Numbered from the stretch's first letter, positions 14,174-32,000 are shown. The stretch is 32,000 nt of DNA from Halomonas sp. I1 (GCF_032334135.1 NZ_JAVXUS010000005.1:158618-190617), one strand, 5' to 3'. Program-made: numbers and translations. The notes: a model not told the origin generated them from the letters alone.

Positions 14174-14278
14174 TCGGCCAATGGGCATTGCGAGTAGTAC
14201 GGTTATGCCATCCATGCTGGGTCTCTGTTCGTTTGGAGGCCTTTTTGTATTCAGACCTCACCGATACCGGGAGCCATC

Positions 14279-15000: not shown

Positions 15001-15005
15001 CTTCG

Positions 15006-15030: not shown

Positions 15031-15204
15031 GGTGATTGTCACACCGTCCTGACGAGCCGTTGCATGAACAGATGGCGTTGTATCCAGTAGAGGAATTTTT
15101 CTTCGTATTGGTCTCGCCTTATAGCAGCAAGGAATTCTCGTTAATGGGCCTTTATTGGCATAACCATTGACGTGGGGCTCCATCGGACAGGCCAGTCGAA
15201 ATAC

Positions 15205-17256
15205 ATGTATATCACTGTACAGAGAAAAGGTAGCCTTGGCCGCCGTTGTCGGTTCGTTGGCTTAGTGTGTGGACTTTCATTTTGTACTATCGGTGCCGAA
15301 GCAGCCGATGACCAGCGTCTGGAAAAACTGCTCGAGGAAGCCACCGCTGAGCGCCATGAGCGTCAATGGCGCTCGGCATTGGCGCTCTATGAACGCGTGC
15401 TTAGGCTGGACCCAGATCATGATACGGCGTATCGCGAGCGTACTATCACCCTGTCATTGCAGGGTAGTGCCGGTCTAGCCTGGCATTATTATCAGCAACG
15501 CCCGGAGCTTTTCAATGCCGATGAGGCGAGTGGCTTCGAGCAGGACTATATCGCGCGACTCGCCGTATGGGGTAAGTTGCCGAGCAAGCCTTCCAACGAT
15601 GACATGACCCGCGCCTTGGAGGCTCAAGAGGCGTTTCTGACTCACCGGGACGGTGAAGTGCCGGTGCGTCAACGTTTCGATCACCTTTACATTCTCCACG
15701 GTTTACGCCGCCACGAGAAGGTTGTCGATGGCTATCGGAAACTGACGGAGGATGACATCGATATCCCACCTTATGTCTTGCGCATTGCCGGCGACTCCTT
15801 GTTGGCCATGCGGGAGCCTGAAAGTGCCGTTGAGGTGATGGAACGGGTCGTCGATGCCGACGTGGCGACCGCCGATGACCATGTCCTCCTGGCCTATGCC
15901 TATCTGGAATCCGGGCGTTGGCAAGAAGCGCTTCGGCATCTCGAACTCGAAGCCGAAGAGGAACGTGCCTGGTTGTGGGAGAGGAAGGCCCGACAGCCGC
16001 ATTCCAACTGGAATCGCTATTTCCTGGATTCGACTCTGGCGATGATCCGCAGTTATACGGGCGATCAACCGGAGGCCCAGGAGCGCCTGGAGACAATGGC
16101 GGGCATCGGGCCTCGCAATGCGGGGGTGCAGGCCAATCTAGGTAACCTCTATCTCCAGCGTGGCTGGGAGGACCAGGCGTTGACGCGCTTTCAGATTGCG
16201 ACCCGCCTCGATCCGAGCTTGCCGGATGGCTGGGTTGGTCAGGTCGATGCCCTTGCGGAGAAGCAGCGGGTGGGCGAGGCTCGCCAGGCGATGCAGCAAG
16301 CGATACGCCTGGCAGCCGGCTCGCCGCGGGTAGAACAGATGCGGCGAGACTGGCGGACCCGTACCGGCTGGCGTGTCAACGTCTCGACCGTGGCGGGACA
16401 CAGTGACGCGCCGAGCGGCGCGAACTCACCAACGGGCTCCGATGAGCAACGCCACCATCTTGCAGCATGGTCGCCCTTGCTGGGAGATCGCTGGCGGCTT
16501 GGCCTCCTGGGAAGCGAGCAGGCCATCGACTTCCACGGTGAACGCGTGCATGACACTCGCGGTGGGTTGGGCCTGCGTTATGCCCGGGATCGGCTATCGC
16601 TCGAGTCTCGTCTCGAGCGCAGCGACGATGCCTTTTCCCGCGATACGGCCTTCATGTTCGAACTGGACTGGCGCATCAACGAGACTCTGGACACCAGGGT
16701 GCGTTATGCCACGCACAGCCGCGAGGGCTCCCTGCAGGCACATGCTTCGGGCATTACTGCCGACCAGGCCCAGGTCGGCATCGACTGGTCGCCGAATGAG
16801 CGTCGTACCTACCAGGCTTCCGTTACGCAGATGGACTACTCGGACGGCAACCGTCAGGAAAGTCTATCGCTGAGTGGGTGGCATCGCTTGATGGATACCC
16901 CCGATGAGGCTCTCGGCCTGAGCCTCGAGCTCCACGCGGACCAGGCCAGTGATCCCGACACTGCTTATTTCAGTCCCGAGACCAGCGCTTCCTGGGAGCT
17001 CGGTGCGCTCTGGGAAGCGCGCACCTGGCACCGCTATGAACAGCACTTCATCCAGGATTTCGGCGTTAGTGTCGGTCAATCCTGGCAGCAGGAATACGGC
17101 GCGGACTGGGTTCCGACGCTGAGCTACCGACATCGATGGGGGATCGGAAACGGCCGGGATCTCCAGTATGGCGTGTCCTGGTCACGCCCCGTCTACGACG
17201 GTACACGTGAGACCCATCTTAGCTTCGATATTGGCATCACCTGGGGAGAACAATGA
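15205..17256 (+). CDS. pgaA: PNAG export porin PgaA (TPR domain plus beta-barrel)
   Basis: Signal peptide MYITVQRKGSLGRRCRFVGLVCGLSFCTIGAEA/ADD. TPR-like repeats are present (ALALYERVLRLDPDHDTAY, GNLYLQRGWEDQALTRFQIATRLDP). The C-terminal half is beta-strand-rich. It is the first gene of a pgaABCD-ordered cluster. The start is uncertain (GTG 15172, ATG 15205 or a downstream TTG). Confidence 0.85.
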   Translation: MYITVQRKGSLGRRCRFVGLVCGLSFCTIGAEAADDQRLEKLLEEATAERHERQWRSALALYERVLRLDPDHDTAYRERTITLSLQGSAGLAWHYYQQRPELFNADEASGFEQDYIARLAVWGKLPSKPSNDDMTRALEAQEAFLTHRDGEVPVRQRFDHLYILHGLRRHEKVVDGYRKLTEDDIDIPPYVLRIAGDSLLAMREPESAVEVMERVVDADVATADDHVLLAYAYLESGRWQEALRHLELEAEEERAWLWERKARQPHSNWNRYFLDSTLAMIRSYTGDQPEAQERLETMAGIGPRNAGVQANLGNLYLQRGWEDQALTRFQIATRLDPSLPDGWVGQVDALAEKQRVGEARQAMQQAIRLAAGSPRVEQMRRDWRTRTGWRVNVSTVAGHSDAPSGANSPTGSDEQRHHLAAWSPLLGDRWRLGLLGSEQAIDFHGERVHDTRGGLGLRYARDRLSLESRLERSDDAFSRDTAFMFELDWRINETLDTRVRYATHSREGSLQAHASGITADQAQVGIDWSPNERRTYQASVTQMDYSDGNRQESLSLSGWHRLMDTPDEALGLSLELHADQASDPDTAYFSPETSASWELGALWEARTWHRYEQHFIQDFGVSVGQSWQQEYGADWVPTLSYRHRWGIGNGRDLQYGVSWSRPVYDGTRETHLSFDIGITWGEQ

Positions 17257-19145
17257 TGGCGGCTATCATCGCCAAGTGTTGGAAATCCACGATGCTTTTT
17301 CTGGGTCTGGCCATGATGACATGGCCTGCTGTCGCGGCATCTGCTACTGGGCAGAACGTGTTGACGATCCTTTGTTATCACGATATTCGCGACCAGGTAG
17401 CCGATAGTGGCGATGCGGACCTCTATGCGGTCAACACCGAGCGTCTGGTCTCCTTCTTCGATTGGCTTCGGGAAAGCGAATTTAACGTCGTCAGCCTGGA
17501 CCAGGTGGTCGCGGCCTCCGAAGGGGAGAGAGCGTTACCAGAAAACCCGGTGCTGCTGACCTTCGATGATGGTCTGAAAAGCGTCTACACCAAGCTGTTC
17601 CCGCTACTTCAAGCTTATGACTATCCCGCCGTAGTGGCAGTGGTCACCAGTTGGGTGGAAAACTCGGACACTGAAGTGGAGTACGGGGCAGAGATATATA
17701 CCGAAGATGATTTCATGACGTGGGATCAGATTCGTGAAATAAGCGATTCTGACCTGGTGGAGATCGCCTCTCACTCCCACGACATGCATCGTGGTGTGCT
17801 AGCTAATCCCCAGGGTAATACCATGGCGGTGGCGGTAACCCGAGAATACTCGATGGGAGACGGGCAGTACGAGGATGATGATGTCTATCGGCAACGGGTA
17901 CGTGAGGATTTGGCGCGTAGTGCCGAGTTGATCGAGGCTCACACTGGCAAGGCGCCGCGTGCCGTGGTGTGGCCCTATGGCGAATACAATCGGATTACCA
18001 ACGAACTGGCTGAGGACGTCGGTATGCCAGTCACTTTCGGCCTGCAGGGAGCGTCGCAGCCATTTCATGAAGGCATGCCGTTGGCAGGATTGGAACGCTA
18101 CCTGATTTCCGATAATCCATCCCTTTCTGACCTAGCCGGCAAGATGAGGTTGCCGGTACCACCTACAAAGCGCATCGTCCAAGTCGATCTGGATTACGTC
18201 TATGATAAGGACCCGAAGCAGCAGCGGCGAAATGTCGATGCACTGATCAGTCGCATGTACCGGCTACAGCCGGATTATATCTTTCTGCAAGCCTTTGCCG
18301 ACCCAGATGGCAATGATGCCGCCGATGCGGTGTATTTCCCCAACCGTCATATGCCGATGCGTGCTAATCTGTTTAGCCGCGTGGCATGGCAGCTCTATAC
18401 ACGCGCCGATGTTGAGGTTTTTTCTTGGATGCCGGTGTTGGCATGGCAATTGCCGGATCCCCAACAACGTGAAGCGCTTTCATTACCAAGCCCCGAGCCG
18501 GGAGAAGTATTCAGGCTTGATCCGACCAATGTCGAGGCGAGGCGCATCATTGCTGAAATTTATGAAGATCTCACGGCGTCCAGCTGGGTATATGGCCTGC
18601 ATTTTCATGATGATGCCCAGCTGCGCGAGACGGAGCTACCTGCTCTCCACCCCGGTGACCCGCTGGCTCGGAGCCAATATCTGATCGATTTTACCCAGGA
18701 ACTGAAACATGCAGCGGGGCGCAACCGATCCAAGTTGAAGACGTCTCGCAACCTTTATCCCATGCCGGTACTGAAACCAGAGAGCCGTAACTGGTTTGCC
18801 CAGGATCTCGATCAGTTCTTGGCAGCCTATGATTATATCACGTTGATGGCCATGCCTTGGCTTGAAGGCAGCAATACCCCTAAACAGTGGCTCGAGTCGT
18901 TGGTCGATGCCGTACGCCATCATCCGGGGGCGATGGATAAAACGATCTTCCAGCTCCAGACCGTTGACTGGCGTACGAACAGCCGAACTCCCGGAGATGA
19001 GCTACCTGATTTGATGAGCTTCCTGGAGTCTCTGGGCGTACGTCACCTCGGTTACTATCCGGATGATTTTATCCTCGATAGGCCTCCGTTGCCTGAGGTT
19101 CGGCCAGTGATATCTCGCGACAATTTCCCTTACCTGAAGGAATAG
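17253..19145 (+). CDS. pgaB: PNAG N-deacetylase PgaB
   Basis: ATGA overlap with pgaA and GGGGAG as SD. Motifs include YHDI, VLLTFDDGLKSVYTKLFPLLQAYDYPAV, EIASHSHDMH, VVWPYGEYN, DLDYVYD, LQAFADPDGN and FSRVAWQL. These are collinear with E. coli PgaB. Confidence 0.93.
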   Translation: MMAAIIAKCWKSTMLFLGLAMMTWPAVAASATGQNVLTILCYHDIRDQVADSGDADLYAVNTERLVSFFDWLRESEFNVVSLDQVVAASEGERALPENPVLLTFDDGLKSVYTKLFPLLQAYDYPAVVAVVTSWVENSDTEVEYGAEIYTEDDFMTWDQIREISDSDLVEIASHSHDMHRGVLANPQGNTMAVAVTREYSMGDGQYEDDDVYRQRVREDLARSAELIEAHTGKAPRAVVWPYGEYNRITNELAEDVGMPVTFGLQGASQPFHEGMPLAGLERYLISDNPSLSDLAGKMRLPVPPTKRIVQVDLDYVYDKDPKQQRRNVDALISRMYRLQPDYIFLQAFADPDGNDAADAVYFPNRHMPMRANLFSRVAWQLYTRADVEVFSWMPVLAWQLPDPQQREALSLPSPEPGEVFRLDPTNVEARRIIAEIYEDLTASSWVYGLHFHDDAQLRETELPALHPGDPLARSQYLIDFTQELKHAAGRNRSKLKTSRNLYPMPVLKPESRNWFAQDLDQFLAAYDYITLMAMPWLEGSNTPKQWLESLVDAVRHHPGAMDKTIFQLQTVDWRTNSRTPGDELPDLMSFLESLGVRHLGYYPDDFILDRPPLPEVRPVISRDNFPYLKE

Positions 19146-19149
19146 ACCC

Positions 19150-20403
19150 ATGGTCGGTGACGTGATCGAGGCTATGCAAGCATTTGCCTTTCTCTATCCT
19201 GCGGTCATGGCGATTTTCTGGATGGGAGGAGGACTCTACTATTTTATGCGAAATGAGCGGAATGCTGGAAACGTGGATGCGCCTCCCTTGATCGAAAATG
19301 CGCCGCTGGTTTCCATTCTAGTGCCTTGCCACAATGAAGGGGATAACATTGACGAGGTGATCGAGACGTTGTTACTGCAGCACTATCCCGATTTCGAGAT
19401 TCTTCTGATCAATGATGGTAGTACCGACAATACCGCCGAATACCTGGACCGCTTGTCTGCACATCATGAACAAGTGCGGGCCATGCACCTGGATCGTAAT
19501 CTCGGAAAGGCGAATGCCCTGCGCATGGGAACCTTGGCAGCCCGCTCGGAATTTTTGGTCTGCATCGATGGTGATGCCTTGCTGCACCCCCATGCCGTGA
19601 CCTGGATGGTGGCACCGATGCTGGAGGACGCCCGGATCGGCGCCGTGACGGGAAATCCCCGTATCCGTAACCGTTCGACCCTGCTCGGCAAGCTTCAGGT
19701 CGGGGAATTCTCCTCGATCATCGGTATGATCAAGCGCACCCAGCATGCTTACGGCCGATTGTTCACCATCTCCGGTGTGATCTGTGCATTTCGCAAGCAG
19801 GCTTTGCACCAGATCGATTACTGGTCCACCGATATGCTGACCGAGGACATCGATGTCAGTTGGCGGCTGCAGATGGCCAAGTGGAGCCTCCGTTATGAGC
19901 CCCATGCGCTCTGTTACATCCTGATGCCCGAGACCCTTAAAGGGCTCTGGAAACAGCGCTTGCGCTGGGCAAGAGGGGGTTCTGAAGTGGTGTTGCGCTA
20001 CTCCCGTCGCATCGTGATGCCCGTCCAGTGGCGCATGTGGCCACTGTATTGGGAGTATCTGACGAGCTTGGTATGGGCCTATGTCATGGTTGGTCTCATG
20101 TTGCTGTGGGGTGTCGGCCTGTCCGGCGTCTTGCCCGAGAATTGGCCGTTGGCTAGCCCTTTTCCCCGTCTCTATGGTTTGTTGTTGGCACTCATCTGCC
20201 TCGGGCAGTTCTTCATCAGCATGCTCATCGACTCTCGATACGAACCCAAGGTAGGGCGCCATTACTACTGGTTGATCTGGTACCCACTCGCCTACTGGAT
20301 CATCAGCCTTTTCACGACGCTTGTTGCCTTCCCACTGACACTGTTTCGCCGGCGCGGCAAGCTTGCAACCTGGTCCAGCACCGATCGAGGATACAAACCA
20401 TGA
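19150..20403 (+). CDS. pgaC: PNAG synthase PgaC (GT2 family)
   Basis: Motifs include VSILVPCHNEGDNI, LINDGSTDNT, VCIDGDALL, GAVTGNPRIRNRSTLLGKLQVGEFSSIIG, TEDIDVSW and LWKQRLRWARGG (QxxRW). These are collinear with E. coli PgaC. Confidence 0.95.
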   Translation: MVGDVIEAMQAFAFLYPAVMAIFWMGGGLYYFMRNERNAGNVDAPPLIENAPLVSILVPCHNEGDNIDEVIETLLLQHYPDFEILLINDGSTDNTAEYLDRLSAHHEQVRAMHLDRNLGKANALRMGTLAARSEFLVCIDGDALLHPHAVTWMVAPMLEDARIGAVTGNPRIRNRSTLLGKLQVGEFSSIIGMIKRTQHAYGRLFTISGVICAFRKQALHQIDYWSTDMLTEDIDVSWRLQMAKWSLRYEPHALCYILMPETLKGLWKQRLRWARGGSEVVLRYSRRIVMPVQWRMWPLYWEYLTSLVWAYVMVGLMLLWGVGLSGVLPENWPLASPFPRLYGLLLALICLGQFFISMLIDSRYEPKVGRHYYWLIWYPLAYWIISLFTTLVAFPLTLFRRRGKLATWSSTDRGYKP

Positions 20404-20885
20404 ACGCTATCATTGCGTTACCACGACGCCAGAAGACCGCCATCATGATGGGATATAGCTTTTTCACACTCTGTGCCTGGTTGGGGTATGGTTACCTGCT
20501 GTTTCCCATGGTCGTGCTCATCATCGAGTGGCTCGAACTGCACGGATGGCACTCGTCATCGGCATTCCGGGTACCGCTCCAAGGAGGCGGTAGTCTGTCG
20601 ATTCTACTGCCGATGGCGGGCAGTGCCCTGGTCGCTTTCGTCTGCTGGGCGGAGTGTAGGCGGCTGCTATTGCGCTGTCGTAAACGGATGTACCAAGGCG
20701 AGCCTCTGTCACGGGAGTTACTTGCCAAGGCCATGAAGGCGTCGCCGGAGCTTGCCATGGCCATGATGCGGACCAAGAGGGGCATACTGCATATGGATCA
20801 ACATGGCATGCCGTTGAGATTGGCTCAAACGGTTTACCAGCGGGAAGCCACACCCGACGATCCGAGTGAGGTCCTGGTCTCCTGA
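20400..20885 (+). CDS. pgaD: PNAG synthase accessory subunit PgaD
   Basis: ATGA overlap with pgaC. The product has two N-terminal TM helices. The C-terminal tail (LSRELLAKAMKASPELAMAMMRTKRGILHMDQHG) parallels the E. coli PgaD tail ([30 protein letters not shown]). Confidence 0.8.
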   Translation: MNAIIALPRRQKTAIMMGYSFFTLCAWLGYGYLLFPMVVLIIEWLELHGWHSSSAFRVPLQGGGSLSILLPMAGSALVAFVCWAECRRLLLRCRKRMYQGEPLSRELLAKAMKASPELAMAMMRTKRGILHMDQHGMPLRLAQTVYQREATPDDPSEVLVS

Positions 20886-20914
20886 ACGATGTTCATGTCT
20901 TGGGAGGATGGAAG

Positions 20915-21088
20915 ATGGTTCGGGTGGCTGCTAGTCTACCACCTATCTTCGCAAGTGCTGTTTTGATGCTATCGGTTGCATTGTCGGCCGGTTGTTGTAT
21001 AGACCTCGAAATCAAGACGTCCAGCCAGCATCGGAATCGGCGGGAGTCATGGCGACGAATGAAGACGGTAGCGTATATATGTTCTTGA
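20915..21088 (+). CDS. Candidate 57-aa lipoprotein
   Basis: The ATG at 20915 lies 6 nt after GGGAGGA. The product is MVRVAASLPPIFASAVLMLSVALSAGC..., which carries lipobox LSAGC. No family was recognised. Confidence 0.35.
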   Translation: MVRVAASLPPIFASAVLMLSVALSAGCCIDLEIKTSSQHRNRRESWRRMKTVAYICS

Positions 21089-21098
21089 CCATGGAATC

Positions 21099-22070
21099 AT
21101 GACCATGCCCCTGAGATTGGTTCACCCCCAGGGGGGAGGGGCCGAAGTTGTCAACACCGAGTCTTCACTCGTGGAAATTTCCGAGATTGCGTTTGTCAGC
21201 GCAGGGACGGTATGCCGGGGGAGACTCTTTGCGCCACGCGGAGGGGAGGGGAGAGCCACTCTGGTAATGGCGCATGGCCTGGGCGGAACTCTGGGCGCCG
21301 GCTTGGTCGGCTTCGCCGAGCGCTTGTCGCAGGCTGGCATCAGAGTGGTCGCTTTCGACTACCGCTTCTTTGGTCAGTCCAACGGCAAGCCACGTCAATT
21401 GGTGTCCATTCAGGATCAGCTTACCGACTGGCAAGCGGCCTTGACCTTCGCCCAGCGTCTTGACCCGAAGGCTCCCCTGGTATTGTGGGGGACCTCCCTG
21501 TCGAGTGGCCATGTGCTGACACTGGCCTCCGAACTACGCAATATCGCGGCCGTGATCGCTCAGAATCCCATGGTAGACGGACGGGCGTCGATACTCGCCC
21601 AATGTCGAAGCGTGGGCCTTTCTCAGACGCTAAGCGTCGCGAAAGCCGGCCTGGAGGATCTGGCTCGGGGATGGTTCGGACGTGACCCGCTGGTTATCCC
21701 CATTGCCGGCGAACCGGGGCGTCTCGCGGCCCTGACTACCCCAGGGGCACTGTCAGAACTCCAGTCCATTGCCCCGGAGCACTTCGTCAACGCCATATCC
21801 CCCAGGGTATTACTCTCTCTCGGGTTCTATCGTCCGGTCCGACGCGTTTCTCGAATTCGCTGCCCGGTGCTCCTGCAGTTATGCTTGCATGACGCTGTCA
21901 CGCCAGTTGAAGCCGGTTATCGAGCTGCCGCCAGGATTGGAGCCCTCGCGACCGTCAAGACCTATGATGTCGGTCATTTAGATATCTATCGTGGTCCCGC
22001 CTTCCAGGACGTCGTCATGGATCAACTCAATTTCCTGGGAGCTCATCTTCCCGGTTCATGCGCACAGTAA
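21099..22070 (+). CDS. Alpha/beta-fold hydrolase
   Basis: VMAHGLGG (oxyanion region), FDYRFFGQSNG and nucleophile elbow LWGTSLSSGHV, with a C-terminal D...H (YDVGHLDIY). The substrate is unknown. Confidence 0.75.
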   Translation: MTMPLRLVHPQGGGAEVVNTESSLVEISEIAFVSAGTVCRGRLFAPRGGEGRATLVMAHGLGGTLGAGLVGFAERLSQAGIRVVAFDYRFFGQSNGKPRQLVSIQDQLTDWQAALTFAQRLDPKAPLVLWGTSLSSGHVLTLASELRNIAAVIAQNPMVDGRASILAQCRSVGLSQTLSVAKAGLEDLARGWFGRDPLVIPIAGEPGRLAALTTPGALSELQSIAPEHFVNAISPRVLLSLGFYRPVRRVSRIRCPVLLQLCLHDAVTPVEAGYRAAARIGALATVKTYDVGHLDIYRGPAFQDVVMDQLNFLGAHLPGSCAQ

Positions 22071-22096
22071 GATGCGGATGGATGGGCGCCACTGAC

Positions 22097-22128
22097 ATGT
22101 CTGGCCATATGGTTGGCCAGACATTTTT
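22097..22128 (+). terminator. Rho-independent terminator after the hydrolase gene
   Basis: Perfect 11-bp stem ATGTCTGGCCA (22097-22107) / TGGCCAGACAT (22114-22124) with loop TATGGT. The T run spans 22124-22128. Confidence 0.75.
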
Positions 22129-22166: not shown

Positions 22167-22417
22167 ACTATTCTGACATTCAGGGGGGGGAGCGGAATGT
22201 CAAGAAGATTTTACGGAGTATGCTGTAGTCTGTAGCTGACATTTCGAGTGACTCTAGGGTGCGGTAAGCTAGTGTTGATCAGGCTTACAGTACCCTTGAG
22301 CCAAAAGGCGGGAGATAAATTGAAGTGAACCCCATGCATATTATCAGGGAAACGCTCGATAATGCGCCCGGCACTACGCAGTGCAGTGATCGACACGCAC
22401 GGGGCATGGCGTCGTGT

Positions 22418-23143
22418 ATGAGCAAGAAACTACTTTTGGGTACCACACTTGTGATGTCGTTGATGTTGAGTGGTTGCTCGGGGATGGGCGGCGGTGATGG
22501 TTTTCCCGATCCGAATGACGCCTACATGCAGGGCGGAACCCTCGAAACATCGCGTGCGATCCAGACGGTTCAGCCTAGCATGACCAAGGATCAGGTCCGG
22601 GACTTGCTGGGGAATCCCCATTTCTCCGAGGGGCTGATCAACGTCCGGACCTGGGACTACCTGTTCGATCTCAGTGACCACGGTCATCTGGGCAGCATGA
22701 TGTGCCAGTTTCAACTGACCTTCGATGGGGCGATGCGCGTCGAGGAGACGCGGTGGCGAACGGCCAAGTGTGCCACGCGCTATTCGACCATCCAGGCCGA
22801 GCCGATTGAGAGCGCTGGCATGGTGCAGCACTATCACCTTCCCGTTGCTGGTACGTTCGCGGAGGATGGGACCTTGACCAATGATGGACGGCAGGTGCTG
22901 GAAGAGTTTGTACGGGTTCTGCAGCGCGATTTCCTCGACCCCACGCTGGCCATCGGCAGCTATCCGGAACCGGGTCGGTATCGAGTACAACGTCAGGTCG
23001 TTCAACGTTTTCTGAAGGCTCGGGGCGGGGTGTCGGCCGACAAGGTGTCGCTCACCTCGGAGACCGTCTCACCATGTCGAGGCATCAACAGCGCCGATGC
23101 CTGTAGGGGGGGGCGGGTCGTTATCGGGATTCGTGAGCGTTGA
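22418..23143 (+). CDS. Lipoprotein with BamE(SmpA/OmlA)-like N-domain and degenerate OmpA-like C-domain
   Basis: Lipobox LMLSGC. MTKDQVRDLLGNPHFSEGLINVRTWDYLFDL...CQFQLTFDG is typical of BamE-like/OmpA-family lipoproteins. The C-terminus (VSADKVSL...PCRG...ACRGGRVVIGI) is OmpA-like, but the central motif looks eroded. An ATG at 22406 is an alternative start. Confidence 0.65.
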   Translation: MSKKLLLGTTLVMSLMLSGCSGMGGGDGFPDPNDAYMQGGTLETSRAIQTVQPSMTKDQVRDLLGNPHFSEGLINVRTWDYLFDLSDHGHLGSMMCQFQLTFDGAMRVEETRWRTAKCATRYSTIQAEPIESAGMVQHYHLPVAGTFAEDGTLTNDGRQVLEEFVRVLQRDFLDPTLAIGSYPEPGRYRVQRQVVQRFLKARGGVSADKVSLTSETVSPCRGINSADACRGGRVVIGIRER

Positions 23144-23165: not shown

Positions 23166-25550
23166 CTACGCGTTGGCTTCGTTCTCTGCGGCGTCTTCCT
23201 CATCACTCTCATCGGCAAGGTCCGGCTGTACCGGGAACATCAGCAGGAAGTGGGTACCGACGTTCTCGGTGCTCCGGCACTCGATGGTGCCGCCGTGCCG
23301 TTCCACCACTGATTTCACCAACGACAGACCCAAGCCATAGCCCGCTGACAGGCTGGCGCCGGAGCTGCGCTGATAGCTGTCGAAAATATGCGGTAGATCC
23401 TGTTCGGGAATACCGACCCCCTGATCCTGGAGCTCGAGTGTAATACCGTGTGTTGTCTCCCTGGCCGTGATCGATACGCAGGTATCGGGTGGGCTGTACT
23501 TGATGGCGTTATCCAGCAGATTGAACACCGCCCTCAACAGGTAGGCGCGATCGCCCTCTATCGGGCACTCGTCTTCGGCATCGCAGTCGATGGTGATGGA
23601 CCGCTGTTGTGCTGCCGGCCAGGCTTGATCGACGGCCTCCAGAATCACGTCGGAAAGCAGCACGAAGTCCTCATTCATGGCACCGAACTCGATCTTCGTC
23701 AGTTGCATGAAACTGTCCGTGAGCGTCAGAGCGTTGCGCGCCTGCTGCGCCACACGGTCGAGTAAATCGTCTTCGGACAACGGGGATGACGAGGAGCGCT
23801 GCAGATGAACCAGGGCCAGGATACTGGACTGCGGGGCTTTCAGGTCATGGGACAGGAAGCGCAGCAGGCTGGCACGCTGCTCTTCCGCCTGTCGTTCGCT
23901 GGTGACATCCACTAGTCCGATCAGCCAGCCAACCTCGAAGTCGTCGACAGCGGTAACCAGCTGAGACACCTTGAGATGGTAATGGCGCTCGTCACTGCCC
24001 TTGTAGAGGGAGTCGTCGAGCGCTCCGAGTCCATTGCTATCGTCTCCGCCGTCTTGCCCGGCGATGGCCCGCCCCTCCGGGATCATGACATCCAGCAGGT
24101 CTTGGATCGTACCTCTGTCGTCGATTCGGTAGCGCTGGAGCAGTTGCTTGGCCTGGGTGCTGGGCAGAATGATATGGCCTTGCATATCCACCACCAGGGT
24201 GGCGATGGGCAGTGAATTCATCGAGTCGGTAATGAATCGGCGCGTGTTCCGGATGCGAGTGATGGCACGCTCGAGGGCACGGAGACGCTGATGTAGAACG
24301 AGCCCCCACTCCTTCGTCTGCTCGGGAGCTGGTTCCGGAACGATGCTGGGTTCATCCTCGAGGCGTCCGATCTCCTGTTGGAACCAGCGCAACGCCGTGG
24401 TCTGGCTACGCCAACTGATGAGAATGCAGGCCGCGAGAACCGAACAAAGGCTGACCGTCGGGGGCCACCACCAGCCAGCGGCCAGCAATCCCCAGGTACA
24501 GAGCAGTACCATGACCAGGACGGCGAGTGTCAGCTTGGCCATGTACCGGAACTGGAATACCCAGACCAAAGCCATGAAGAGCAGCAAGGGGAGCGTGGAG
24601 AGCGCCGAAGATGCCCAGGCGGGAAGGTCCTGAATGATGTCGCCTTGTAGTAGCCCGCCCAGCAGGTTGGCCTGTATCTCGATGCCTGGCATACCCCCGT
24701 CGGCGCCACCGAAAGGGGTTGGATGGCGATCCCCCAGGCCCTTGGCCGTGGCGCCGATCATGACGATGCGACCCTCCAACAAGGAGCGGGGCAGTCGCCC
24801 TTCGAGGATATCGACGTAGGAGACGCGAGGATAGTGGTATGTTGGGCCTCGGTAAGGGATGCGGACGTCGATGTCGCGGTTGTCACCGGCCAGGAGGCGT
24901 CGAGTGGTATCGGAGGGTGTCGTGTGATTCCACGCTACCAGGTCCTCGTAGAGTCGCAGCGTCAGTTGGGGGGTGTGATTTTCCCGCAAATGAATACGGC
25001 GTACGACACCATCGAAGTCCGCCCTGATATCGATATGACCGATGCCGCCAGCCGCATTGCGGAGAGGGGCGATCGGTGGCAGGCGACTGGAATCCGCTGA
25101 GAGTCCATTGTTCTGCACATGGATCACGGGCAGGAAGGCATGACCATGACGCTCCAGAGCCCGGGCCAGGCGCTGGTCCTGGTGTGGCTGGCGTGCGGGT
25201 TCGGCAAACACCACATCGAATAGCACGGCGCTGGTGTCGGCATCGGCCAGGCGATCCAGCAGGCCCGCGTGTACGTCGCGCGGCCATGGCCACTGGCCTA
25301 ACGCTTCCAGACTGCGTTCATCGATGGCCGCGATCAGAATATCGTCACTTGGCGACAGTGTCTGAGTCGTCAGCAATCGGTCATAGATATAAGCATCGGT
25401 GAACCAGGAGCGTTGCCCTGCCCACCAAGAAAGCACCACCAATAGGATGCCGATCAATAGCCAAGTTTGGGTCAGACCACGAAAAAGACTATGGCTGGCG
25501 TGCGGCACCTTGCCTCCCGGAGGCCACGACGGTGGAGTCCACGGCATCAT
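23166..25550 (-). CDS. CHASE2-domain sensor histidine kinase
   Basis: An N-terminal TM segment is followed by CHASE2 (DDILIAAIDERSLEALGQWPWPRDVHAGLLDRLADA...VLFDVVFAEP) and three TM helices. A PAS-like block, the H-box LRFLSHDLKAPQSSI, the N-box LLDNAIKYSP, G-boxes DQGVGIP and GYGLGLSLV, and an acidic tail follow. An alternative GTG start at 25508 has GGGAGG 4 nt upstream. Confidence 0.88.
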   Translation of the reverse strand: MMPWTPPSWPPGGKVPHASHSLFRGLTQTWLLIGILLVVLSWWAGQRSWFTDAYIYDRLLTTQTLSPSDDILIAAIDERSLEALGQWPWPRDVHAGLLDRLADADTSAVLFDVVFAEPARQPHQDQRLARALERHGHAFLPVIHVQNNGLSADSSRLPPIAPLRNAAGGIGHIDIRADFDGVVRRIHLRENHTPQLTLRLYEDLVAWNHTTPSDTTRRLLAGDNRDIDVRIPYRGPTYHYPRVSYVDILEGRLPRSLLEGRIVMIGATAKGLGDRHPTPFGGADGGMPGIEIQANLLGGLLQGDIIQDLPAWASSALSTLPLLLFMALVWVFQFRYMAKLTLAVLVMVLLCTWGLLAAGWWWPPTVSLCSVLAACILISWRSQTTALRWFQQEIGRLEDEPSIVPEPAPEQTKEWGLVLHQRLRALERAITRIRNTRRFITDSMNSLPIATLVVDMQGHIILPSTQAKQLLQRYRIDDRGTIQDLLDVMIPEGRAIAGQDGGDDSNGLGALDDSLYKGSDERHYHLKVSQLVTAVDDFEVGWLIGLVDVTSERQAEEQRASLLRFLSHDLKAPQSSILALVHLQRSSSSPLSEDDLLDRVAQQARNALTLTDSFMQLTKIEFGAMNEDFVLLSDVILEAVDQAWPAAQQRSITIDCDAEDECPIEGDRAYLLRAVFNLLDNAIKYSPPDTCVSITARETTHGITLELQDQGVGIPEQDLPHIFDSYQRSSGASLSAGYGLGLSLVKSVVERHGGTIECRSTENVGTHFLLMFPVQPDLADESDEEDAAENEANA

Positions 25551-26754
25551 TCCCGATACCCGATACCTGCAATCGCCAGAAGAAGTCCTCCGTCGGCAGA
25601 TTGCGCAGGGTGACCCCCTGGCTCCCCGAGAATGACCGGCTCATGAAGGGGTCATTGAATGTCTCGTCTTCGGATAACTGTAGGCGATATTCCAGGCTAG
25701 GGATATCGGTCCAGTGGAAGACGTAGCCACCCTCGGTGGTCTCCAGGCTTGCGTTTACCGGACGATGCAAGACCAGTTGGCGGTCGTAGAGTCCCTCGAA
25801 GCCCTGGGCGTCGACCGCAGAACCGCGCGCATAGTAGAAACCTTGAGGGACCGCCTCGAAGGTAATGGAGCGTGAGTCGCCACGCTGCTCGCGAAAGATG
25901 GTCTGGAAGTCGGGGTCTCGTGCCAGTTGCACTCGATAGGTTTCGGCACCTGAGACGGCTGACAAGTCAACCTGCAAGGGTTGATCGAAGGGAGAATCGT
26001 CTTCCTTCAGAACGGGAGCGGGGAGAAGGTCGGTAATCTGGGCGGGGGACGTTGAGCTCGAGCGTGCCCCCTGACCGGCGGATACGCTGGTGGTGCGTTC
26101 TCCTTGGCTCAAGGCCACTTCGCCTTCCAGGGTACTGACGCGCGTGCCGTCATCGGCATATGTTACCCGAAAATGTGTACCCCGCACCCCGACGATCCCT
26201 GTCGGGGTGTCGATGCTCAGCACCTCGCGATGGTCGCGTTGCACCGGTACCCGAGCTTCCAGTTCGCCACGTTCAAGATAAAGGCGAGTGCTACGACGAT
26301 CCTGTCGCTTCAGGACCGCTCGAGAACTGGAGGGCAATACTACGTCCTCGCCATGGGGCAGGCGCAGCGATACGAAGGCATGGCTCGTGGTTTCCACGGT
26401 ATCGCCGGGGACAAGAGCCATGTCCTCGCGCAGCGAGATACGTTCGCCACTGTCCTTGACCAACCAGGCGGTGCCTTCCCGATGTCGAACCTCGGCGGTC
26501 AGATCGGGCAGGGGCGGTAGATCCAGAACGTCACCGGGCTGTATATGGCGAGGCTCCCTCACCCGATTGGCATCTCGGACGATAGGCCATTCCCTGGCTT
26601 CACCGCGGTAGCGTTCCGTGATCTCCCAGAGCGTATCGCCTGGTTGCACGCGATAGCGCTCGGACGAGATGTCATTATCGGCGTGTGCCGCCGAAACGAG
26701 CAATATGGCGGTAAAACAAAGCCCCGTCAGGCCATATCGATACCACTTGTTCAT
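25489..26754 (-). CDS. Secreted LysM plus FecR-domain protein with two C-terminal beta-rich repeats
   Basis: GGAG lies 7 nt upstream of the ATG. The signal peptide is ...LLVSAAHA/DND. The LysM block is YRVQPGDTLWEITERY...IQPGDVLDLP. FecR-like blocks are ISLREDMALVPGDTVETTSHAFVSLRLPHGEDVVL and TPTGIVGVRGTHFRV. The 3' end overlaps the kinase start. Confidence 0.8.
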   Translation of the reverse strand: MNKWYRYGLTGLCFTAILLVSAAHADNDISSERYRVQPGDTLWEITERYRGEAREWPIVRDANRVREPRHIQPGDVLDLPPLPDLTAEVRHREGTAWLVKDSGERISLREDMALVPGDTVETTSHAFVSLRLPHGEDVVLPSSSRAVLKRQDRRSTRLYLERGELEARVPVQRDHREVLSIDTPTGIVGVRGTHFRVTYADDGTRVSTLEGEVALSQGERTTSVSAGQGARSSSTSPAQITDLLPAPVLKEDDSPFDQPLQVDLSAVSGAETYRVQLARDPDFQTIFREQRGDSRSITFEAVPQGFYYARGSAVDAQGFEGLYDRQLVLHRPVNASLETTEGGYVFHWTDIPSLEYRLQLSEDETFNDPFMSRSFSGSQGVTLRNLPTEDFFWRLQVSGIGNDAVDSTVVASGRQGAARQP

Positions 26755-26859
26755 CTTTTCACTCCTGTGCTCGACATCGCATGAAGGAGATAGGTCATCG
26801 TGAAAGTATGTCTAGCATACGCTAAAGCGCGTCGAAACGTAGCCTGTAAGTGACACTTG

Positions 26860-27140
26860 TTCATTGTTGCTTGGGATGGTTGGTAGTGACTAACTGTTTT
26901 TTGAATTATGAAGCCTTGTTGTGGGGCTTTGTGGTTTTTTTACAGTGTAGATGTTTTTTTGGTGCGTTGTTCTTTATTATTTTTTTTATGTCAGTGTGCT
27001 ATTAAATTCTAAGGTGTGATTATAAGGTTTTTTGTTGCTTATGTTTTTAAGGTTTTTAATGATTGTTTTGGTGGTGAGTCATTGATGAAGAAGGAGAGAG
27101 TTTGTGAATTTAGATGAATAGTTTTTTGCTCGGTCTTGGT
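26860..27140. promoter_or_regulatory. C-depleted G/T-rich divergent control region between the LysM-FecR operon and the adhesin gene
   Basis: My manual count for 26881-27120 is T 116, G 62, A 48, C 14 of 240. It contains T6-T8 runs at 26897-26902, 26935-26941, 26954-26960 and 26980-26987. Confidence 0.5.
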
Positions 27141-27358
27141 CATGAAATTATGTAACAGCCGGTTCTTGAGAGTGCTGGCTGTGCTAGCGTCTTTCTCCGA
27201 AATTATCCGTCTCTACGTTTTATAGGGAAATCAGACCCGAGCCTTTGGCGGGCGTGTTTATTAAATGCAAGCCGAGATACCAGGTAAGGCGTCTGCAACA
27301 TGCAAATGGCTTATCGGCGTCAACGACAGAAGGACGCTGAGTAGTCGGAGGAATCGTA

Positions 27359-30300
27359 ATGAATAAAGTGTTCCGTCTGGTCTGGAATCGGCATGTCGGG
27401 CAACTGGTCGTAGCCTCCGAGGCGGCGCGGGCGCGTCGCAAGGATGGAGGGGCAACTGGCTTGGTCGGCTCTTTGCATAAATCGGCGCTGGCGGTGCTGT
27501 TCAGTATGGCCGCCGTCGGGGGTGCTGTTACCGTCAGTCCGGCGTATGGTGTTCAGCTTGGTGGTGGCATCGACTGTACTACTGATGATGGTAAAACGAG
27601 GCTCGCCGTTGGCACGGATGCCAGGGCTTGTTGGGACTTCGCTACCGCCATTGGTAGTGAGTCAAAGGTCAATGGAGAATATGGTACGGCGCTTGGCAGG
27701 TCGGCATTTGCTAAAAAATCTGCAACTGGGTTGGGGGTTAACGCCACTGCCTGGGATTACGCGGTGGCCGTGGGGAGTCAATCGGAAGCGAATCCATATG
27801 GCGTAGCCGTTGGGCGGTATGCGGATGCAGGTGATAGCGCTGTGGCCGTTGGTCGTAATGCCAGTGCTGTTAGTGATGCTATTGCCGTTGGTCGGGGGAG
27901 TACTGTCACCAGCGAGGGTTCAGTGGCAATTGGTCAGGGTAGCGATGCGGGAAACGTTACGTTGATCAATGAGCAGCTTCCTGCTGATGTCTATCAGCGC
28001 GGTGTGGCGCTGGGGAAGGGGGCGAGTGCTGTTGGTTCGGTAGCGCTGGGGCATAATGCTAAAGCGGGAAAACCGGAGGAGGCGAATTCGGGGGCGTGGG
28101 TAGGAACCGCGATAGGTGCAGGGGCGCAGGCGCTGGCTCATCGGGGGATTGCTATCGGCTCTGCGCGTAACAGAAATACGTATGCGAGCGGTACAAATGC
28201 CGTTGCCATGGGGAACGCAGTAAAAGCCAGAGGTAATAACTCAATTGCCATTGGTAATAGCCAAGCTCCCGAGGATGATGGTACCTGGACAAACTTCACA
28301 CGCCACCGCGCTGATGGTGTTCGGGCGGTGGCGTTAGGGTACTCTTCACAAGCAGATGGTGATAACTCGATAACTCTAGGTGCTTGGGCGCGAGCTACTG
28401 ACCATTCTTCCATGGCCCTCGGCAGAGAGGCGACGGCCAACAATGATGGTGCCATGGCTCTGGGGTCAGAATCACAGGCTTCCGGTTATCGGGCCATTGC
28501 TCAGGGCGTGCAGTCCACCTCAACTGGCAATTCTTCCATTGCTCAAGGCAGAGAGGCTAAAGCTGATAATGATGGTGCCATAGCCTTGGGACCGGCGTCC
28601 CAGGCCTCTGGTTATCGAGCCGTTGCCCAAGGGGCGTACTCTGCCGCCGGTGGAGAGAGAGCCATCGCCATTGGGGCTGGTGCTGAGTCTTCGCATACCG
28701 ATAGCGTGGCTCTTGGCTCTGGCTCAGTAGCTGATGGTGGTGGCCTTGCCAATGCGCCTTATCAGCCCGTTGATGTTGACGGCAATCTGATGGCGGTAGC
28801 GGCCCCGACCGCCAGCAGTGAAGTCTCAGTGGGAGACGTTGGCGGTGAACGGCGTATTACCAATGTAGCCGCCGGCTCGGCGGATACCGATGCGGTCAAC
28901 GTTTCGCAGTTGGCCGCCGTGGATACCAAGGCGGATTATGCTAGCCAGGGCTGGAACCTTTCCGTAGCTGGCGGTGGTAGTACCAATGTCGCTCCGGGCG
29001 GTACTGTCGATTTTGTTGCCGGAAACAATGTCGACATTGTGCGTAATGGCAATCAGCTGACCTTCTCGGCAGCTGGTGGCACTGGTGGCGGCAGTGTGCA
29101 CTACTACAGTGTCAATGATGGTGGAACCCAGCAAAGCAACTACTATAACGGTGGAGCGGTCGGTGTCGATTCCCTCGCTGCGGGGACAGAGGCCTATGCG
29201 CAAGGGGCATCGTCCACTGCCGTCGGTGATAATACATACGCCCAGCAGGAGGGGACGGTAGCGATCGGACGGTCCGCTGGTGCTTATGGCACTAATCACG
29301 ATGCCGGACAGGATACCTACTTGTACGATCGGGGTAATCCCTATCACTACCAGACTGGCAATGGCGAAGATATCGGCGAAGATGCGCCGCGACTCTTTCC
29401 TGATCGCCCCGGGCGTGCTGTCTCCATTGGGAAAAACACTGAGTCACGCGCGGGTGGCGTTGCGCTGGGTTCCGATGCTTATTCGCATAACTTTGGGGTT
29501 GCGCTGGGGGCCAGCGCCAAGGTTGATAAAATCGCTGGCATGGCGATCGGCCCCTCTGCGTGGGCAGGCGGTAACACCAGCCTGGCCATCGGCCGTCAAT
29601 CCGCCGCGGTGGAAGATTTCGCGCAAGCCTTGGGTAACCAGGCAGCAGCCAAGGGGCGCGGTTCTTTCGCGGTGGGCCACTCTGCAGTGGCGGAAGGCAG
29701 TCGATCAATTGCGATTGGTACCGCCGATCTCGATAGCGCCGGAGATACGGATCACCAGTCCGGTGTGTTGTGGGCGGAGCAAGGGCGTACTGAAGCTCTG
29801 GGGCAGGATGCTGTTGCGATTGCTAGTGGTGCGGTCGCAAGTGCGGATGAAACGATCGCGATCGGTACCGATGCCATTGCAAGTGGCATCCAATCGATAT
29901 CCATCGGTACCGCTAACGAGGTTTCCGGCGATGCTTCCGGTGCCATCGGCGAACCTAACATTGTCACGGGAGCCGGCTCCTACGCGTTAGGCAACGACAA
30001 TACCATCGATGCCGACGAAGCAGGCGCCTTCGGTAACCGTAATATGCTGGCCGGTACTGCCGATGGCAGCCGTATCATTGGTAACGACAGCAATGTCGAT
30101 GTAGCCGATGCCTTCGTGATGGGCAACGGTGCGGATGTCACGGTAGCCGAAGGGGTATCGCTCGGTAACGGTTCGATTGCCGACACCGGGGCAGGCATCC
30201 AGGGCTATAACCCGATCACCGGCGCCGCTGATGGACTGGATCCGGCCATCGCCGCTACAGCTAGCACCACCGGAGCGGTGGCGGTCGGGGATGCCTATAA

Positions 30301-32000
30301 TGGCGTCTATCGCCAGATTACCGGTGTCGCTGCTGGTACCGAAGACTCTGATGCGGTCAACGTGGCACAGCTTAAAAGCGTCAGCGACGTGGCCAACGCC
30401 GGCTGGGACATCAGTGCCCAGGGCGAAAACGCGACCAATGTGGCACCGGGCGAGACCGTCGACCTGAACAACGACGACGGCAACATCGTGGTGAGCAAGA
30501 CCGCCGACAGCGATGACGTGACCTTCGACCTGGCCGACAACGTGACCATCGGTGATAGCCTGACCGTCGAGGGCGACACCCATCTGGGTGACAACTTCGA
30601 GGTGGTCAACAACGAAGTCCACTACGATGGCCCGATCACCGATGAAACCCATGTCGTCAACAAGGAGTACGTTGATGGGGTGGAGACGCACTACTACAGC
30701 GTCAACGACGGCGGCGTGCCAAAGGGTAACTACGACAATGATGGCGCCACGGGCCTGGATTCCATGGCGGCTGGTGTGAATGCCAGTGCCGTCGAAGCCG
30801 GTGGTGTGGCGATCGGCAAGAACGCCACGTCCCTGGATCGCAATGCGGTCGCCATGGGCCTCAACGCCGAAGCATCGCACTCGGCCAGTCTCGCCTTGGG
30901 GCAAGATAGCGAGGCGTCTGGACAGAACTCCATTGCCATGGGTATCGACGCCAAGGCGACCGGCATCGATGGCATCGCTATTGGTAATGCGACGGATGCC
31001 GTGGAAAGCAGTACAGCACTGGGGGATCGGGCGGCGGCCGACCTTCTGGGCTCCGTGGCGATCGGGCAGCAGGCGCATGCGACCGATCAGGACAGCGTCG
31101 CGCTGGGTAGCTTTACGCAGACCTCGGAGGCCGTTGGCACCAGCAATGTCACGATCGACGGCATGACCTATGACTTTGCCGGCACCGATCCACTGGCGAC
31201 AGTGAGTGTGGGTAGCGATAGTTATAAGCGCACCATCACCAATGTGGCGGCGGGGCGTGTCTCGGAGTTCAGCACCGATGCCATCAACGGTTCTCAGTTG
31301 TTCGCCACCAACAAGGCGATCGAGAACGTCAGCGAAACTGCCAACGCCGGCTGGAACCTGAGCACTCAGGACGGCGCGGCTAGCAACGTGGCGCCGGACG
31401 GCGAAGTCAACCTGCGTAACGCGGATGGCAATCTGGCGATCAGCCAGGTGACCAATAACGGTCGCGAGGAAGTTACCTTCGACCTGGCCGACAACGTGAC
31501 CATCGGCGACAGCCTGACCGTCGAGGGTGATACCACGGTCAACGGTGACACCTACCTGGGCGACAACTTCGAGGTGGTCAATAACGAGGCGCACTACGAT
31601 GGCCCGATCACTGAGGACACCCATGTCGTCAACAAGAAGTACGTCGATGACTCGGGCGACGAGCTGATCGCCGAGGGCTTGAACTTCTCGGGCAACGAAG
31701 GCGAGACAGTCCACCGCGACCTGGGCGAGACCCTGGCGGTGACCGGCGAAGCCACCGCGGGCGACACCTACAGTGGCGCCAACCTGAAGACGGTGACCGA
31801 TCCGGCAACCGGCGAGATCGCGCTGCAGATGAGCGATCAGCCGCAGTTCGGCGACGTGACCATCAACGAGGGCGACAGCGGCAAGATCACCGGCCTGGCC
31901 CCCGGCGAAGATGGCACCGACGCGGTGAACGTCGATCAGCTGGAAGAGGTCAGCGACGTGGCCAACACCGGCTGGGACATCAGTGCCCAGGGCGAAAATG
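27359..32000 (+). CDS. Trimeric autotransporter adhesin (YadA/Hia-like), 3'-truncated by the window edge
   Basis: It is not in the track because no stop codon falls in the window; I spot-translated the frame at seven places and found it open. GGAGGA precedes the ATG. The extended signal peptide is MNKVFRLVWNRHVGQLVVASE. It has many YadA-head-type repeats (AVAVG, SIAIGN, AMALG, SVALG). Neck-type motifs include RRITNVAAGSADTDAVNVSQL, YRQITGVAAGTEDSDAVNVAQL and KRTITNVAAG. HYYSVNDGG and ANAGWN/DIS modules are also present. Confidence 0.92.
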   Translation, partial: MNKVFRLVWNRHVGQLVVASEAARARRKDGGATGLVGSLHKSALAVLFSMAAVGGAVTVSPAYGVQLGGGIDCTTDDGKTRLAVGTDARACWDFATAIGSESKVNGEYGTALGRSAFAKKSATGLGVNATAWDYAVAVGSQSEANPYGVAVGRYADAGDSAVAVGRNASAVSDAIAVGRGSTVTSEGSVAIGQGSDAGNVTLINEQLPADVYQRGVALGKGASAVGSVALGHNAKAGKPEEANSGAWVGTAIGAGAQALAHRGIAIGSARNRNTYASGTNAVAMGNAVKARGNNSIAIGNSQAPEDDGTWTNFTRHRADGVRAVALGYSSQADGDNSITLGAWARATDHSSMALGREATANNDGAMALGSESQASGYRAIAQGVQSTSTGNSSIAQGREAKADNDGAIALGPASQASGYRAVAQGAYSAAGGERAIAIGAGAESSHTDSVALGSGSVADGGGLANAPYQPVDVDGNLMAVAAPTASSEVSVGDVGGERRITNVAAGSADTDAVNVSQLAAVDTKADYASQGWNLSVAGGGSTNVAPGGTVDFVAGNNVDIVRNGNQLTFSAAGGTGGGSVHYYSVNDGGTQQSNYYNGGAVGVDSLAAGTEAYAQGASSTAVGDNTYAQQEGTVAIGRSAGAYGTNHDAGQDTYLYDRGNPYHYQTGNGEDIGEDAPRLFPDRPGRAVSIGKNTESRAGGVALGSDAYSHNFGVALGASAKVDKIAGMAIGPSAWAGGNTSLAIGRQSAAVEDFAQALGNQAAAKGRGSFAVGHSAVAEGSRSIAIGTADLDSAGDTDHQSGVLWAEQGRTEALGQDAVAIASGAVASADETIAIGTDAIASGIQSISIGTANEVSGDASGAIGEPNIVTGAGSYALGNDNTIDADEAGAFGNRNMLAGTADGSRIIGNDSNVDVADAFVMGNGADVTVAEGVSLGNGSIADTGAGIQGYNPITGAADGLDPAIAATASTTGAVAVGDAYNGVYRQITGVAAGTEDSDAVNVAQLKSVSDVANAGWDISAQGENATNVAPGETVDLNNDDGNIVVSKTADSDDVTFDLADNVTIGDSLTVEGDTHLGDNFEVVNNEVHYDGPITDETHVVNKEYVDGVETHYYSVNDGGVPKGNYDNDGATGLDSMAAGVNASAVEAGGVAIGKNATSLDRNAVAMGLNAEASHSASLALGQDSEASGQNSIAMGIDAKATGIDGIAIGNATDAVESSTALGDRAAADLLGSVAIGQQAHATDQDSVALGSFTQTSEAVGTSNVTIDGMTYDFAGTDPLATVSVGSDSYKRTITNVAAGRVSEFSTDAINGSQLFATNKAIENVSETANAGWNLSTQDGAASNVAPDGEVNLRNADGNLAISQVTNNGREEVTFDLADNVTIGDSLTVEGDTTVNGDTYLGDNFEVVNNEAHYDGPITEDTHVVNKKYVDDSGDELIAEGLNFSGNEGETVHRDLGETLAVTGEATAGDTYSGANLKTVTDPATGEIALQMSDQPQFGDVTINEGDSGKITGLAPGEDGTDAVNVDQLEEVSDVANTGWDISAQGEN
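30518..30677 (+). repeat. Intragenic adhesin repeat, copy A (stalk module VTFDLADNVTIGDSLTVEGDT...HYDGPIT..THVVNK.YVD)
   Basis: It is near-identical at the DNA level to 31472-31649, apart from scattered third-position changes and an 18-nt insertion in copy B. Confidence 0.85.
31472..31649 (+). repeat. Intragenic adhesin repeat, copy B
   Basis: See copy A. In addition, 30380-30431 and 31949-32000 (GTCAGCGACGTGGCCAAC[G/A]CCGGCTGGGACATCAGTGCCCAGGGCGAAAA) differ at only 2 positions. Confidence 0.85.

Follow-up and report, generated by a model that had tools for sequence, protein, structure and literature searches.

The 32,000-nucleotide stretch of the Halomonas sp. I1 genome analysed here (NZ_JAVXUS010000005.1:158618-190617, hereafter the window) carries on its minus strand two overlapping genes, one for a secreted LysM-FecR protein and one for a CHASE2 histidine kinase (Table 1). 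A first-pass annotation, made from the sequence alone, had taken this pair for an undescribed envelope-sensing module with an orphan kinase, in which the soluble protein binds a signal and the kinase transduces it. Our analysis shows that the pair represents, in Halomonas sp. I1, an operon family that is widespread and already known, though not characterised mechanistically. We read it, with moderate confidence, as a two-component sensing operon in which a peptidoglycan-tethered periplasmic co-sensor would feed a CHASE2 kinase that controls surface adhesion.

Table 1. The LysM-FecR/CHASE2 kinase pair and its flanking features, in positions of the window (aa, amino acids; TM, transmembrane; ORF, open reading frame; AF2, AlphaFold2; TAA, trimeric autotransporter adhesin).
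Feature	Position	Strand	Basis
Gene of secreted LysM-FecR-FN3x2 protein, 421 aa, COG4254	25489..26754	-	ORF; Pfam FecR, LysM
Predicted Sec signal peptide, aa 1-25, ending ...SAAHA before DN	26680..26754	-	read from sequence; low pLDDT segment
LysM domain, aa 34-80	26515..26655	-	Pfam 2e-6, above gathering score
FecR domain, aa 118-213, including G192-T193	26116..26403	-	Pfam 3e-17
Two tandem FN3/Ig-like domains, ~aa 243-332 and 333-416	25507..26028	-	AF2 secondary structure, Foldseek
CHASE2 histidine kinase gene, probable start GTG 25508 (780 aa)	23166..25508	-	ORF, Pfam
Periplasmic CHASE2 domain, flanked by TM1 (aa ~22-44) and three TM helices (aa ~311-399)	24564..25445	-	Pfam 1e-54, hydropathy
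Kinase core, HisKA (phospho-accepting His568 in S-H568-DLKAP) and HATPase_c	23226..23876	-	
Divergent control region, 604 bp, AT-rich	26755..27358	.	41% GC vs 60% window
Conserved upstream motif ATGAACAAGTGTCAC	26850..26864	-	aligned upstream regions of window and L001-L003
Giant TAA gene, 5' part, runs off window	27359..32000	+	ESPR, YadA matches
BamE-domain lipoprotein gene, convergent with kinase gene, lipobox LSGC	22325..23143	+	Pfam BamE 1e-12

The secreted protein has 100% identity to a database entry named 'FecR domain-containing protein [Halomonas sp. I1]'. Pfam confirms the LysM and FecR domains of the first-pass annotation, as well as the CHASE2 domain of the kinase. The cleavable signal peptide, in which we read no lipobox, is followed directly by the LysM domain, and the protein contains neither a TM segment nor an anti-sigma domain, so that its description as a secreted protein free of anchor and anti-sigma part stands. 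Its AF2 model (predicted local distance difference test, pLDDT, 85.8; predicted template modelling score, pTM, 0.69) consists of the LysM domain, a beta-rich FecR domain and two fibronectin type III (FN3)/Ig-like domains, the latter corresponding to what had been noted as two beta-rich repeats. Foldseek matches the FecR part with probability 1.00 to PupR (6OVK) and BDI_1681 (4M0N), both periplasmic signalling domains of anti-sigma factors, and the C-terminal repeats to fibronectin type III tandems and the Ig_J domain of a phage tip, while profile matches of the LysM domain in the PDB are LysM proteins including TsaP. The reading of the repeats as FN3/Ig-like is in line with PF24421, which is found in longer homologs. 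Relatives over the full length were recovered from Halomonas, Vreelandella, Alcanivorax, Pseudomonas, Burkholderia, Trinickia, Variovorax, Xenophilus, Undibacterium and others.

The two genes overlap by 20 to 62 nt, as had been proposed, depending on where the kinase starts: 62 nt from the first ATG (25550; ORF 23166-25550, 794 aa) and 20 nt from GTG 25508. The GTG is preceded by GGGAGG (GGGAGG-N4-GTG), and the equivalent GTG, again with a 20-nt overlap, is the first available kinase start in H. elongata (locus L001) and H. caseinilytica (L006), for which reason translation probably begins there. The predicted layout of the kinase was TM-CHASE2-3TM-PAS-HisKA-HATPase. All of its elements were recovered except PAS, for which no Pfam match was obtained in aa 401-560 even at E up to 10; this region aligns only with the PAS part of PhoR/PnpS family models. 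HATPase_c is matched at 3e-27 and HisKA scores 23.7 bits, under the cut-off of 26.9. All kinase boxes are present (H, SHDLKAP; N, NLLDNAIKYS; G1, DQGVGI; F, FDSYQR; G2, GYGLGL), and judged by them the kinase core is catalytically intact. CHASE2 is a common bacterial sensor domain for which we know of no signal or ligand. The AF2 model of this region (aa 1-400; pLDDT 90.1, pTM 0.86) is alpha/beta with one and three TM helices; Foldseek found no significant match to it in the PDB (best E 0.24), and it appears that no experimental structure of the CHASE2 fold exists.

Relatives of the pair were collected by a scan of species-representative genomes. The scan was run with a narrower alignment (A2), alignment A1 being too diverse and a single-sequence scan giving no relatives; it returned 273 relatives, the best 80 of which were analysed as loci. 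In all 79 loci that could be assessed, from Gamma- and Betaproteobacteria, a CHASE2 kinase gene lies immediately downstream of the LysM-FecR gene on the same strand; in the 80th the contig stops 55 bp past the FecR gene. Because the kinase follows directly in 79/79 cases, we consider the two genes a functional unit. The pairing seen in one genome is thus conserved in the neighbourhood statistics, and it is on this near-obligate synteny that the co-receptor arrangement suggested by the first-pass annotation rests; it is plausible and provides the best reading of the pair.

The module itself had been described before. An operon of a COG4254 / PIRSF 'LysM, PA4035' protein and a CHASE2 kinase was surveyed in 2016 (PMC5192318). 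In that work Voronina et al. defined the 'BiofilmReg' operon of B. contaminans, composed of genes for a CreB-like response regulator (RR), a LysM/FecR protein, a TM-CHASE2-3TM-PAS-kinase and a DUF4136 protein, followed it across Burkholderiales, and named PA4035-PA4036 as its two-gene form; forms of two genes lacking the RR were reported for P. aeruginosa and P. thiooxydans (PMC5192318). Disruption of the RR abolishes biofilm formation in B. contaminans (PMC5192318), and the same RR in B. cenocepacia, Bcen2424_1436, is a target in biofilm evolution, in which its CHASE2 kinase also appears (PMC4324302). The PA4036 kinase is listed as being of unknown function (PMC5812489).

Our loci recover the published layout: in B. 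contaminans (L021) the RR gene (7153-7869) is followed by the LysM-FecR gene (to 9227), the kinase gene (9238-11625) and the DUF4136 gene (11651-12277). Compared with the window, identity of L021 amounts to 34% for the FecR protein (aa 34-397, E 1e-50), 34% for the CHASE2 part and 33% for the kinase core, and across the B. contaminans, B. lata and Pseudomonas loci E values range from 1e-34 to 1e-51 for FecR and from 1e-47 to 1e-82 for CHASE2. The window pair therefore resembles the Burkholderia BiofilmReg operons, including BCAL1443 with its downstream genes and Bcen2424_1436-1438, in full-length homology, gene order, strand and domain layout. It differs from them in lacking the adjacent RR and DUF4136 genes, in the overlap of 20 nt where the BiofilmReg genes are 10 bp apart, and in being part of an adhesin island with a gene for a BamE-like lipoprotein downstream. 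DUF4136 was not found in the window by tblastn and is confined to Burkholderia and Trinickia loci, so we regard it as a lineage-specific accessory; past the kinase, Undibacterium, Pseudomonas and Alcanivorax carry unrelated housekeeping genes, and there is no universal fourth component. PA4035-PA4036 of P. aeruginosa resembles the window in being a two-gene FecR-CHASE2 kinase unit with no co-directional RR, although related Pseudomonas loci have a divergent one, the Pseudomonas proteins have a truncated LysM (matched from aa ~80), and they show no linkage to TAA genes.

In Halomonas the pair is divergent from a TAA gene. Besides the ESPR, the adhesin part encoded in the window gives 15 YadA_head and 4 YadA_stalk matches, and the ortholog in H. 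elongata has 4385 aa. The control region of about 600 bp that the first-pass annotation had the pair share with a giant adhesin gene proves to be 604 bp long and contains one sigma-70-like site. Rfam gave no match anywhere in the window, which speaks against a riboswitch in the long adhesin leader. When upstream regions of fixed length from the window and L001-L003 were aligned, the sole long conserved block in an otherwise diverged AT-rich promoter was ATGAACAArTGTCAC, ~100 nt upstream of the LysM-FecR start, and in L001-L003 a second ATATGAAC copy lies ~35 nt further upstream. We consider the window's version, ATGAACAAGTGTCAC, a candidate regulator-binding site.

Among the analysed loci, 23 have a homologous TAA gene no further than 8 kb from the pair and 24 a gene of a BamE-domain lipoprotein. 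The TAA linkage holds for 8 of the 11 assessable Halomonadaceae loci and for 15 of 16 in Comamonadaceae, and most of these also carry BamE-domain (TpgA-like) genes. Gene order is not fixed: in Variovorax (L042) the TAA gene is followed by genes for a BamE/OmpA protein, the RR, the LysM-FecR protein and the kinase, while in Vreelandella (L012) genes for a hypothetical protein, a DUF6447 protein and a Sel1/SH3 protein stand between BamE/OmpA and the pair. That the linkage persists despite such rearrangement argues for a functional tie between the pair and the adhesins. Together with the biofilm phenotypes of the Burkholderia RR (PMC5192318, PMC4324302), it bears out the connection with adhesion that had been hypothesised. 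A comparable arrangement is found in B. cenocepacia, where the TAA cluster BCAM0218-0224 has an embedded histidine kinase, regulators and a lipoprotein (PMC3417366); like this cluster and the TpgA systems, the window combines a TAA gene with flanking two-component and BamE-type lipoprotein genes.

TpgA is a TAA helper with a BamE-like part and an OmpA domain (bioRxiv 10.64898/2026.01.22.700529). The BamE+OmpA proteins encoded beside TAA genes are its homologs, with copies directly after the TAA gene in L081, L012 and L042. The BamE-like protein of the window, in which no OmpA domain is detectable, shares 32% identity with the BamE+OmpA protein of H. elongata, and on this similarity it is a TpgA paralog; TpgA has BamE and a C-terminal OmpA domain and follows the TAA gene, whereas the window copy has BamE only and sits beside the kinase gene. 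Its gene is convergent to the kinase in all six close Halomonas loci (L001-L006), three of which have no nearby TAA, and could be part of the sensor module instead of serving the adhesin.

No receiver domain and no extracytoplasmic function (ECF) sigma factor is encoded in the 32-kb window, in agreement with the first-pass annotation. However, the orphan status of the kinase that it reported is an artefact of window and assembly. An OmpR-family RR gene adjoins the pair in most relatives: in most Betaproteobacteria it immediately precedes the pair on the same strand, and Pseudomonas, Trinickia and three Halomonas species (L004-L006) have it in divergent orientation. In Alcanivorax it is ~6 kb away. 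The window, its closest Halomonas relatives (L001-L003) and the Vreelandella loci have none over a distance of 8 kb. Using the RR of H. caseinilytica as query, we found an 84% identical ortholog, P0095, the likely cognate RR, in Halomonas sp. I1 on a separate 10.9-kb contig, and P0096, 90% identical to P0095, in H. elongata 153B on the contig of L001. In H. elongata the kinase and LysM-FecR genes run leftward; in the opposite direction run the genes for the giant TAA (4385 aa) and the BamE+OmpA protein, followed by an EAL gene on the opposite strand and then by the RR gene and a second TAA gene (3464 aa). The RR gene there is ~15 kb off, past the divergent adhesin gene, and in I1 the repetitive adhesin genes are probably where the assembly is interrupted. 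The EAL gene of this island (L081, 8855-9598, between the TpgA-like and RR genes of H. elongata 153B) encodes a stand-alone EAL-domain protein, which hints at a cyclic di-GMP input to the same circuit.

The proximity of TAA genes allows another explanation of the LysM-FecR protein, namely that it is an output or structural protein of the envelope, a scaffold of the TsaP-PilQ kind or a helper or anchor of the TAA, and is merely co-transcribed with the kinase. TAA and TpgA-like genes do neighbour the pair in two families, LysM with the adjacent region matches TsaP (3jc8, 6ve2), and Leptospira FecR-domain proteins, which are among the matches (Lsa33, LipL45), are annotated as surface adhesins. 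Residues 87-151 (26302-26496) also bear a weak resemblance to a 'retention module' that NCBIfam describes for LapA-type giant adhesins, and to the antifreeze/adhesin region 5ix9 in the PDB, which may point the same way. The likeness to the TsaP class is limited, however, to LysM and the region next to it, and no pilus or secretin genes were found in the neighbourhood. Moreover, 50 of the 80 loci have no nearby TAA gene and all keep the kinase, and in the Burkholderia-type operon the LysM-FecR gene stands between those for the RR and the kinase. A structural role thus seems unlikely to us, the more so as FecR genes follow CHASE2 across five unrelated outputs, which fits the input side of the sensor.

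These outputs are GGDEF, adenylate/guanylate cyclase, HD-GYP, PP2C and kinase domains, to all of which related CHASE2 domains are fused. In seven of ten look-ups of genomic context a FecR-domain gene was adjacent to the CHASE2 gene or within ~1.2 kb of it, two of the seven positives (P0291, P0308) sharing one layout and hence not being independent; in several of them a gene with an OmpA domain lies between or beside the two. The three look-ups lacking a FecR gene comprise a cyclase gene by a two-partner secretion (TPS) exoprotein gene, a kinase gene with a sigma-54 RR, and another cyclase gene. The association of FecR with CHASE2 is therefore broad and not universal. A FecR-CHASE2 adenylate cyclase cluster had been noted in Campylobacterota (PMC9239204). 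Like the window, such clusters have a FecR-domain gene beside a CHASE2 sensor gene; they differ in their output domains and in the FecR partner, which is short and often accompanied by a separate OmpA-domain protein where the window has a fused LysM. That FecR genes accompany CHASE2 whatever the output points to FecR proteins acting on its input side. As a separate observation, in a metagenomic locus (L089, 1-6971) a CHASE2 adenylate cyclase gene is directly downstream of a TPS exoprotein gene of >2000 aa with no FecR gene visible, another link of CHASE2 to a type V secreted surface protein.

Reading the LysM-FecR protein as a co-sensor brings it close to the FecA-FecR-FecI, PupB-PupR and FoxA-FoxR systems. 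The window protein has the same periplasmic FecR domain in sequence and fold and the same Gly-Thr position, and the logic is probably the same, an envelope signal being relayed inward. Unlike the FecR proteins of those systems, it has no TM segment, cytoplasmic anti-sigma domain or STN subdomain; the output goes through the CHASE2 histidine kinase, and no gene for an ECF sigma factor or a TonB-dependent transducer was found in the window. The Gly-Thr pair, G192-T193 (codons 26177-26182), is invariant in 23/23 diverse homologs. It aligns with the non-enzymatic self-cleavage site G181-T182 of E. coli FecR; the FecR sequence used agrees with the literature in its length of 317 and in the Gly-Thr at 181. 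The soluble LysM-FecR protein might accordingly cleave itself at G192-T193, in which case degradation or release of a fragment, and not reversible binding of a ligand, would switch the CHASE2 kinase. The chemistry is established for FecR and FoxR, but autocleavage is dispensable for signalling by FoxR (PMC9249621), and PupR shares the fold and has no GT at the aligned position. We consider a relay that depends on proteolysis rather improbable and retain the co-sensor reading, in which the FecR domain receives the signal.

The first-pass annotation had further connected the pair with a poly-GlcNAc (PNAG) island. LysM would then sense GlcNAc glycans (PNAG, chitin oligomers) produced by way of the nearby pga genes, and the system would regulate PNAG-dependent adhesion. 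LysM domains are known to bind GlcNAc-containing polymers, and pgaABCD is indeed close, though it is 2.3 kb, with two genes, that separate the island from the kinase gene, and not the 1 kb given before. On the other hand, no pga homologs were found in any of the 80 related loci. The block of pgaABCD and an alpha/beta hydrolase gene (~14100-22100) has a GC content of 0.49-0.56 against 0.60-0.64 in the flanks, and it is absent from the loci of H. elongata (L001) and H. caseinilytica (L006), where the BamE-like gene is followed directly by ABC transporter, M24 and YebC genes. We explain this by an insertion specific to this lineage, which looks horizontally acquired, so that the proximity of PNAG genes is incidental. 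In addition, the nearest LysM relatives in the PDB (TsaP, endopeptidases) bind peptidoglycan. PNAG sensing was rejected as lacking any conserved linkage to pga, and we regard it as very improbable; LysM more likely serves as a peptidoglycan tether in the proposed sensing operon.

Some other parts of the window should be mentioned. Upstream of pgaA, 1.1 kb (14025-15171) have a GC content of 0.49, the lowest in the window bar the adhesin control region, and contain no ORF of at least 120 aa; this segment, in which Rfam found nothing, might act as a long leader of pga or as its control region. Genes for a PAS-PAS-GGDEF-EAL protein (5838-8909, plus strand) and a lipoprotein with NlpE and META domains (9021-9794, plus strand) lie 14-20 kb from the pair, the former being syntenic in L004 and L005. 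In E. coli, NlpE acts as the partner of Cpx in surface sensing. The two genes represent further signalling related to adhesion or the envelope in this neighbourhood.

Taken together, we suggest the following course of events for the two-component sensing operon. The protein with LysM, FecR and two FN3-like domains would be exported to the periplasm, where LysM would tether it to peptidoglycan, since its closest solved relatives, TsaP included, are peptidoglycan binders. There it would serve as the signal-receiving co-sensor of the CHASE2 domain, as the obligate synteny suggests, the FecR/FN3 part contacting CHASE2 and gating the kinase. The kinase would phosphorylate the OmpR-family RR, whose gene is beside the pair in most relatives and, in this lineage, would have moved to a place beyond the giant adhesin gene. 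The RR may in turn act on adhesin genes; judging by the linkage and the Burkholderia mutants, the output would be adhesion and biofilm genes, most likely those of the flanking TAAs. The signal suggested by this scheme is a cue of the cell wall, the outer membrane or the state of the envelope, relayed as FecR relays that of FecA, rather than a diffusible small ligand.

It should be noted, however, that several points weigh against this scheme. The tethering by LysM is assumed from precedent in the family, and the place of P0095 in the I1 genome is deduced from the order in H. elongata. No TAA linkage exists in the other 50 loci (Burkholderia, Undibacterium, Pseudomonas, Alcanivorax and others), so the regulon may differ between lineages. 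No FecR gene was found within 5 kb of CHASE2 in three of the ten look-ups, and a screen found no cytotoxicity phenotype for PA4036 mutants of P. aeruginosa (PMC6605022).

A wider proposal can be made only tentatively, as a possibility that we would not call probable. Periplasmic proteins with FecR domains would be general signal-receiving partners of CHASE2 whatever its output. Combined with an element that binds peptidoglycan, be it a LysM in the same chain or an OmpA protein encoded separately, they would make up a relay across the envelope comparable to FecA-FecR, in which Gly-Thr autocleavage might play a part. In Halomonadaceae and Comamonadaceae such a relay would control the expression of adhesins by reporting how the TAA or the outer membrane stands, for instance its contact with a surface or its load.

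For this locus we chiefly correct the earlier view: the module had been catalogued before, its kinase is not an orphan and the PNAG neighbourhood is incidental. For the family, the near-obligate pairing with a FecR-domain protein points to an input of CHASE2 that is mediated by a partner and derived from the envelope, and the linkage to giant trimeric adhesins suggests a concrete candidate regulon. If FecR proteins were indeed general partners of CHASE2, this domain would gain its first mechanistic handle.

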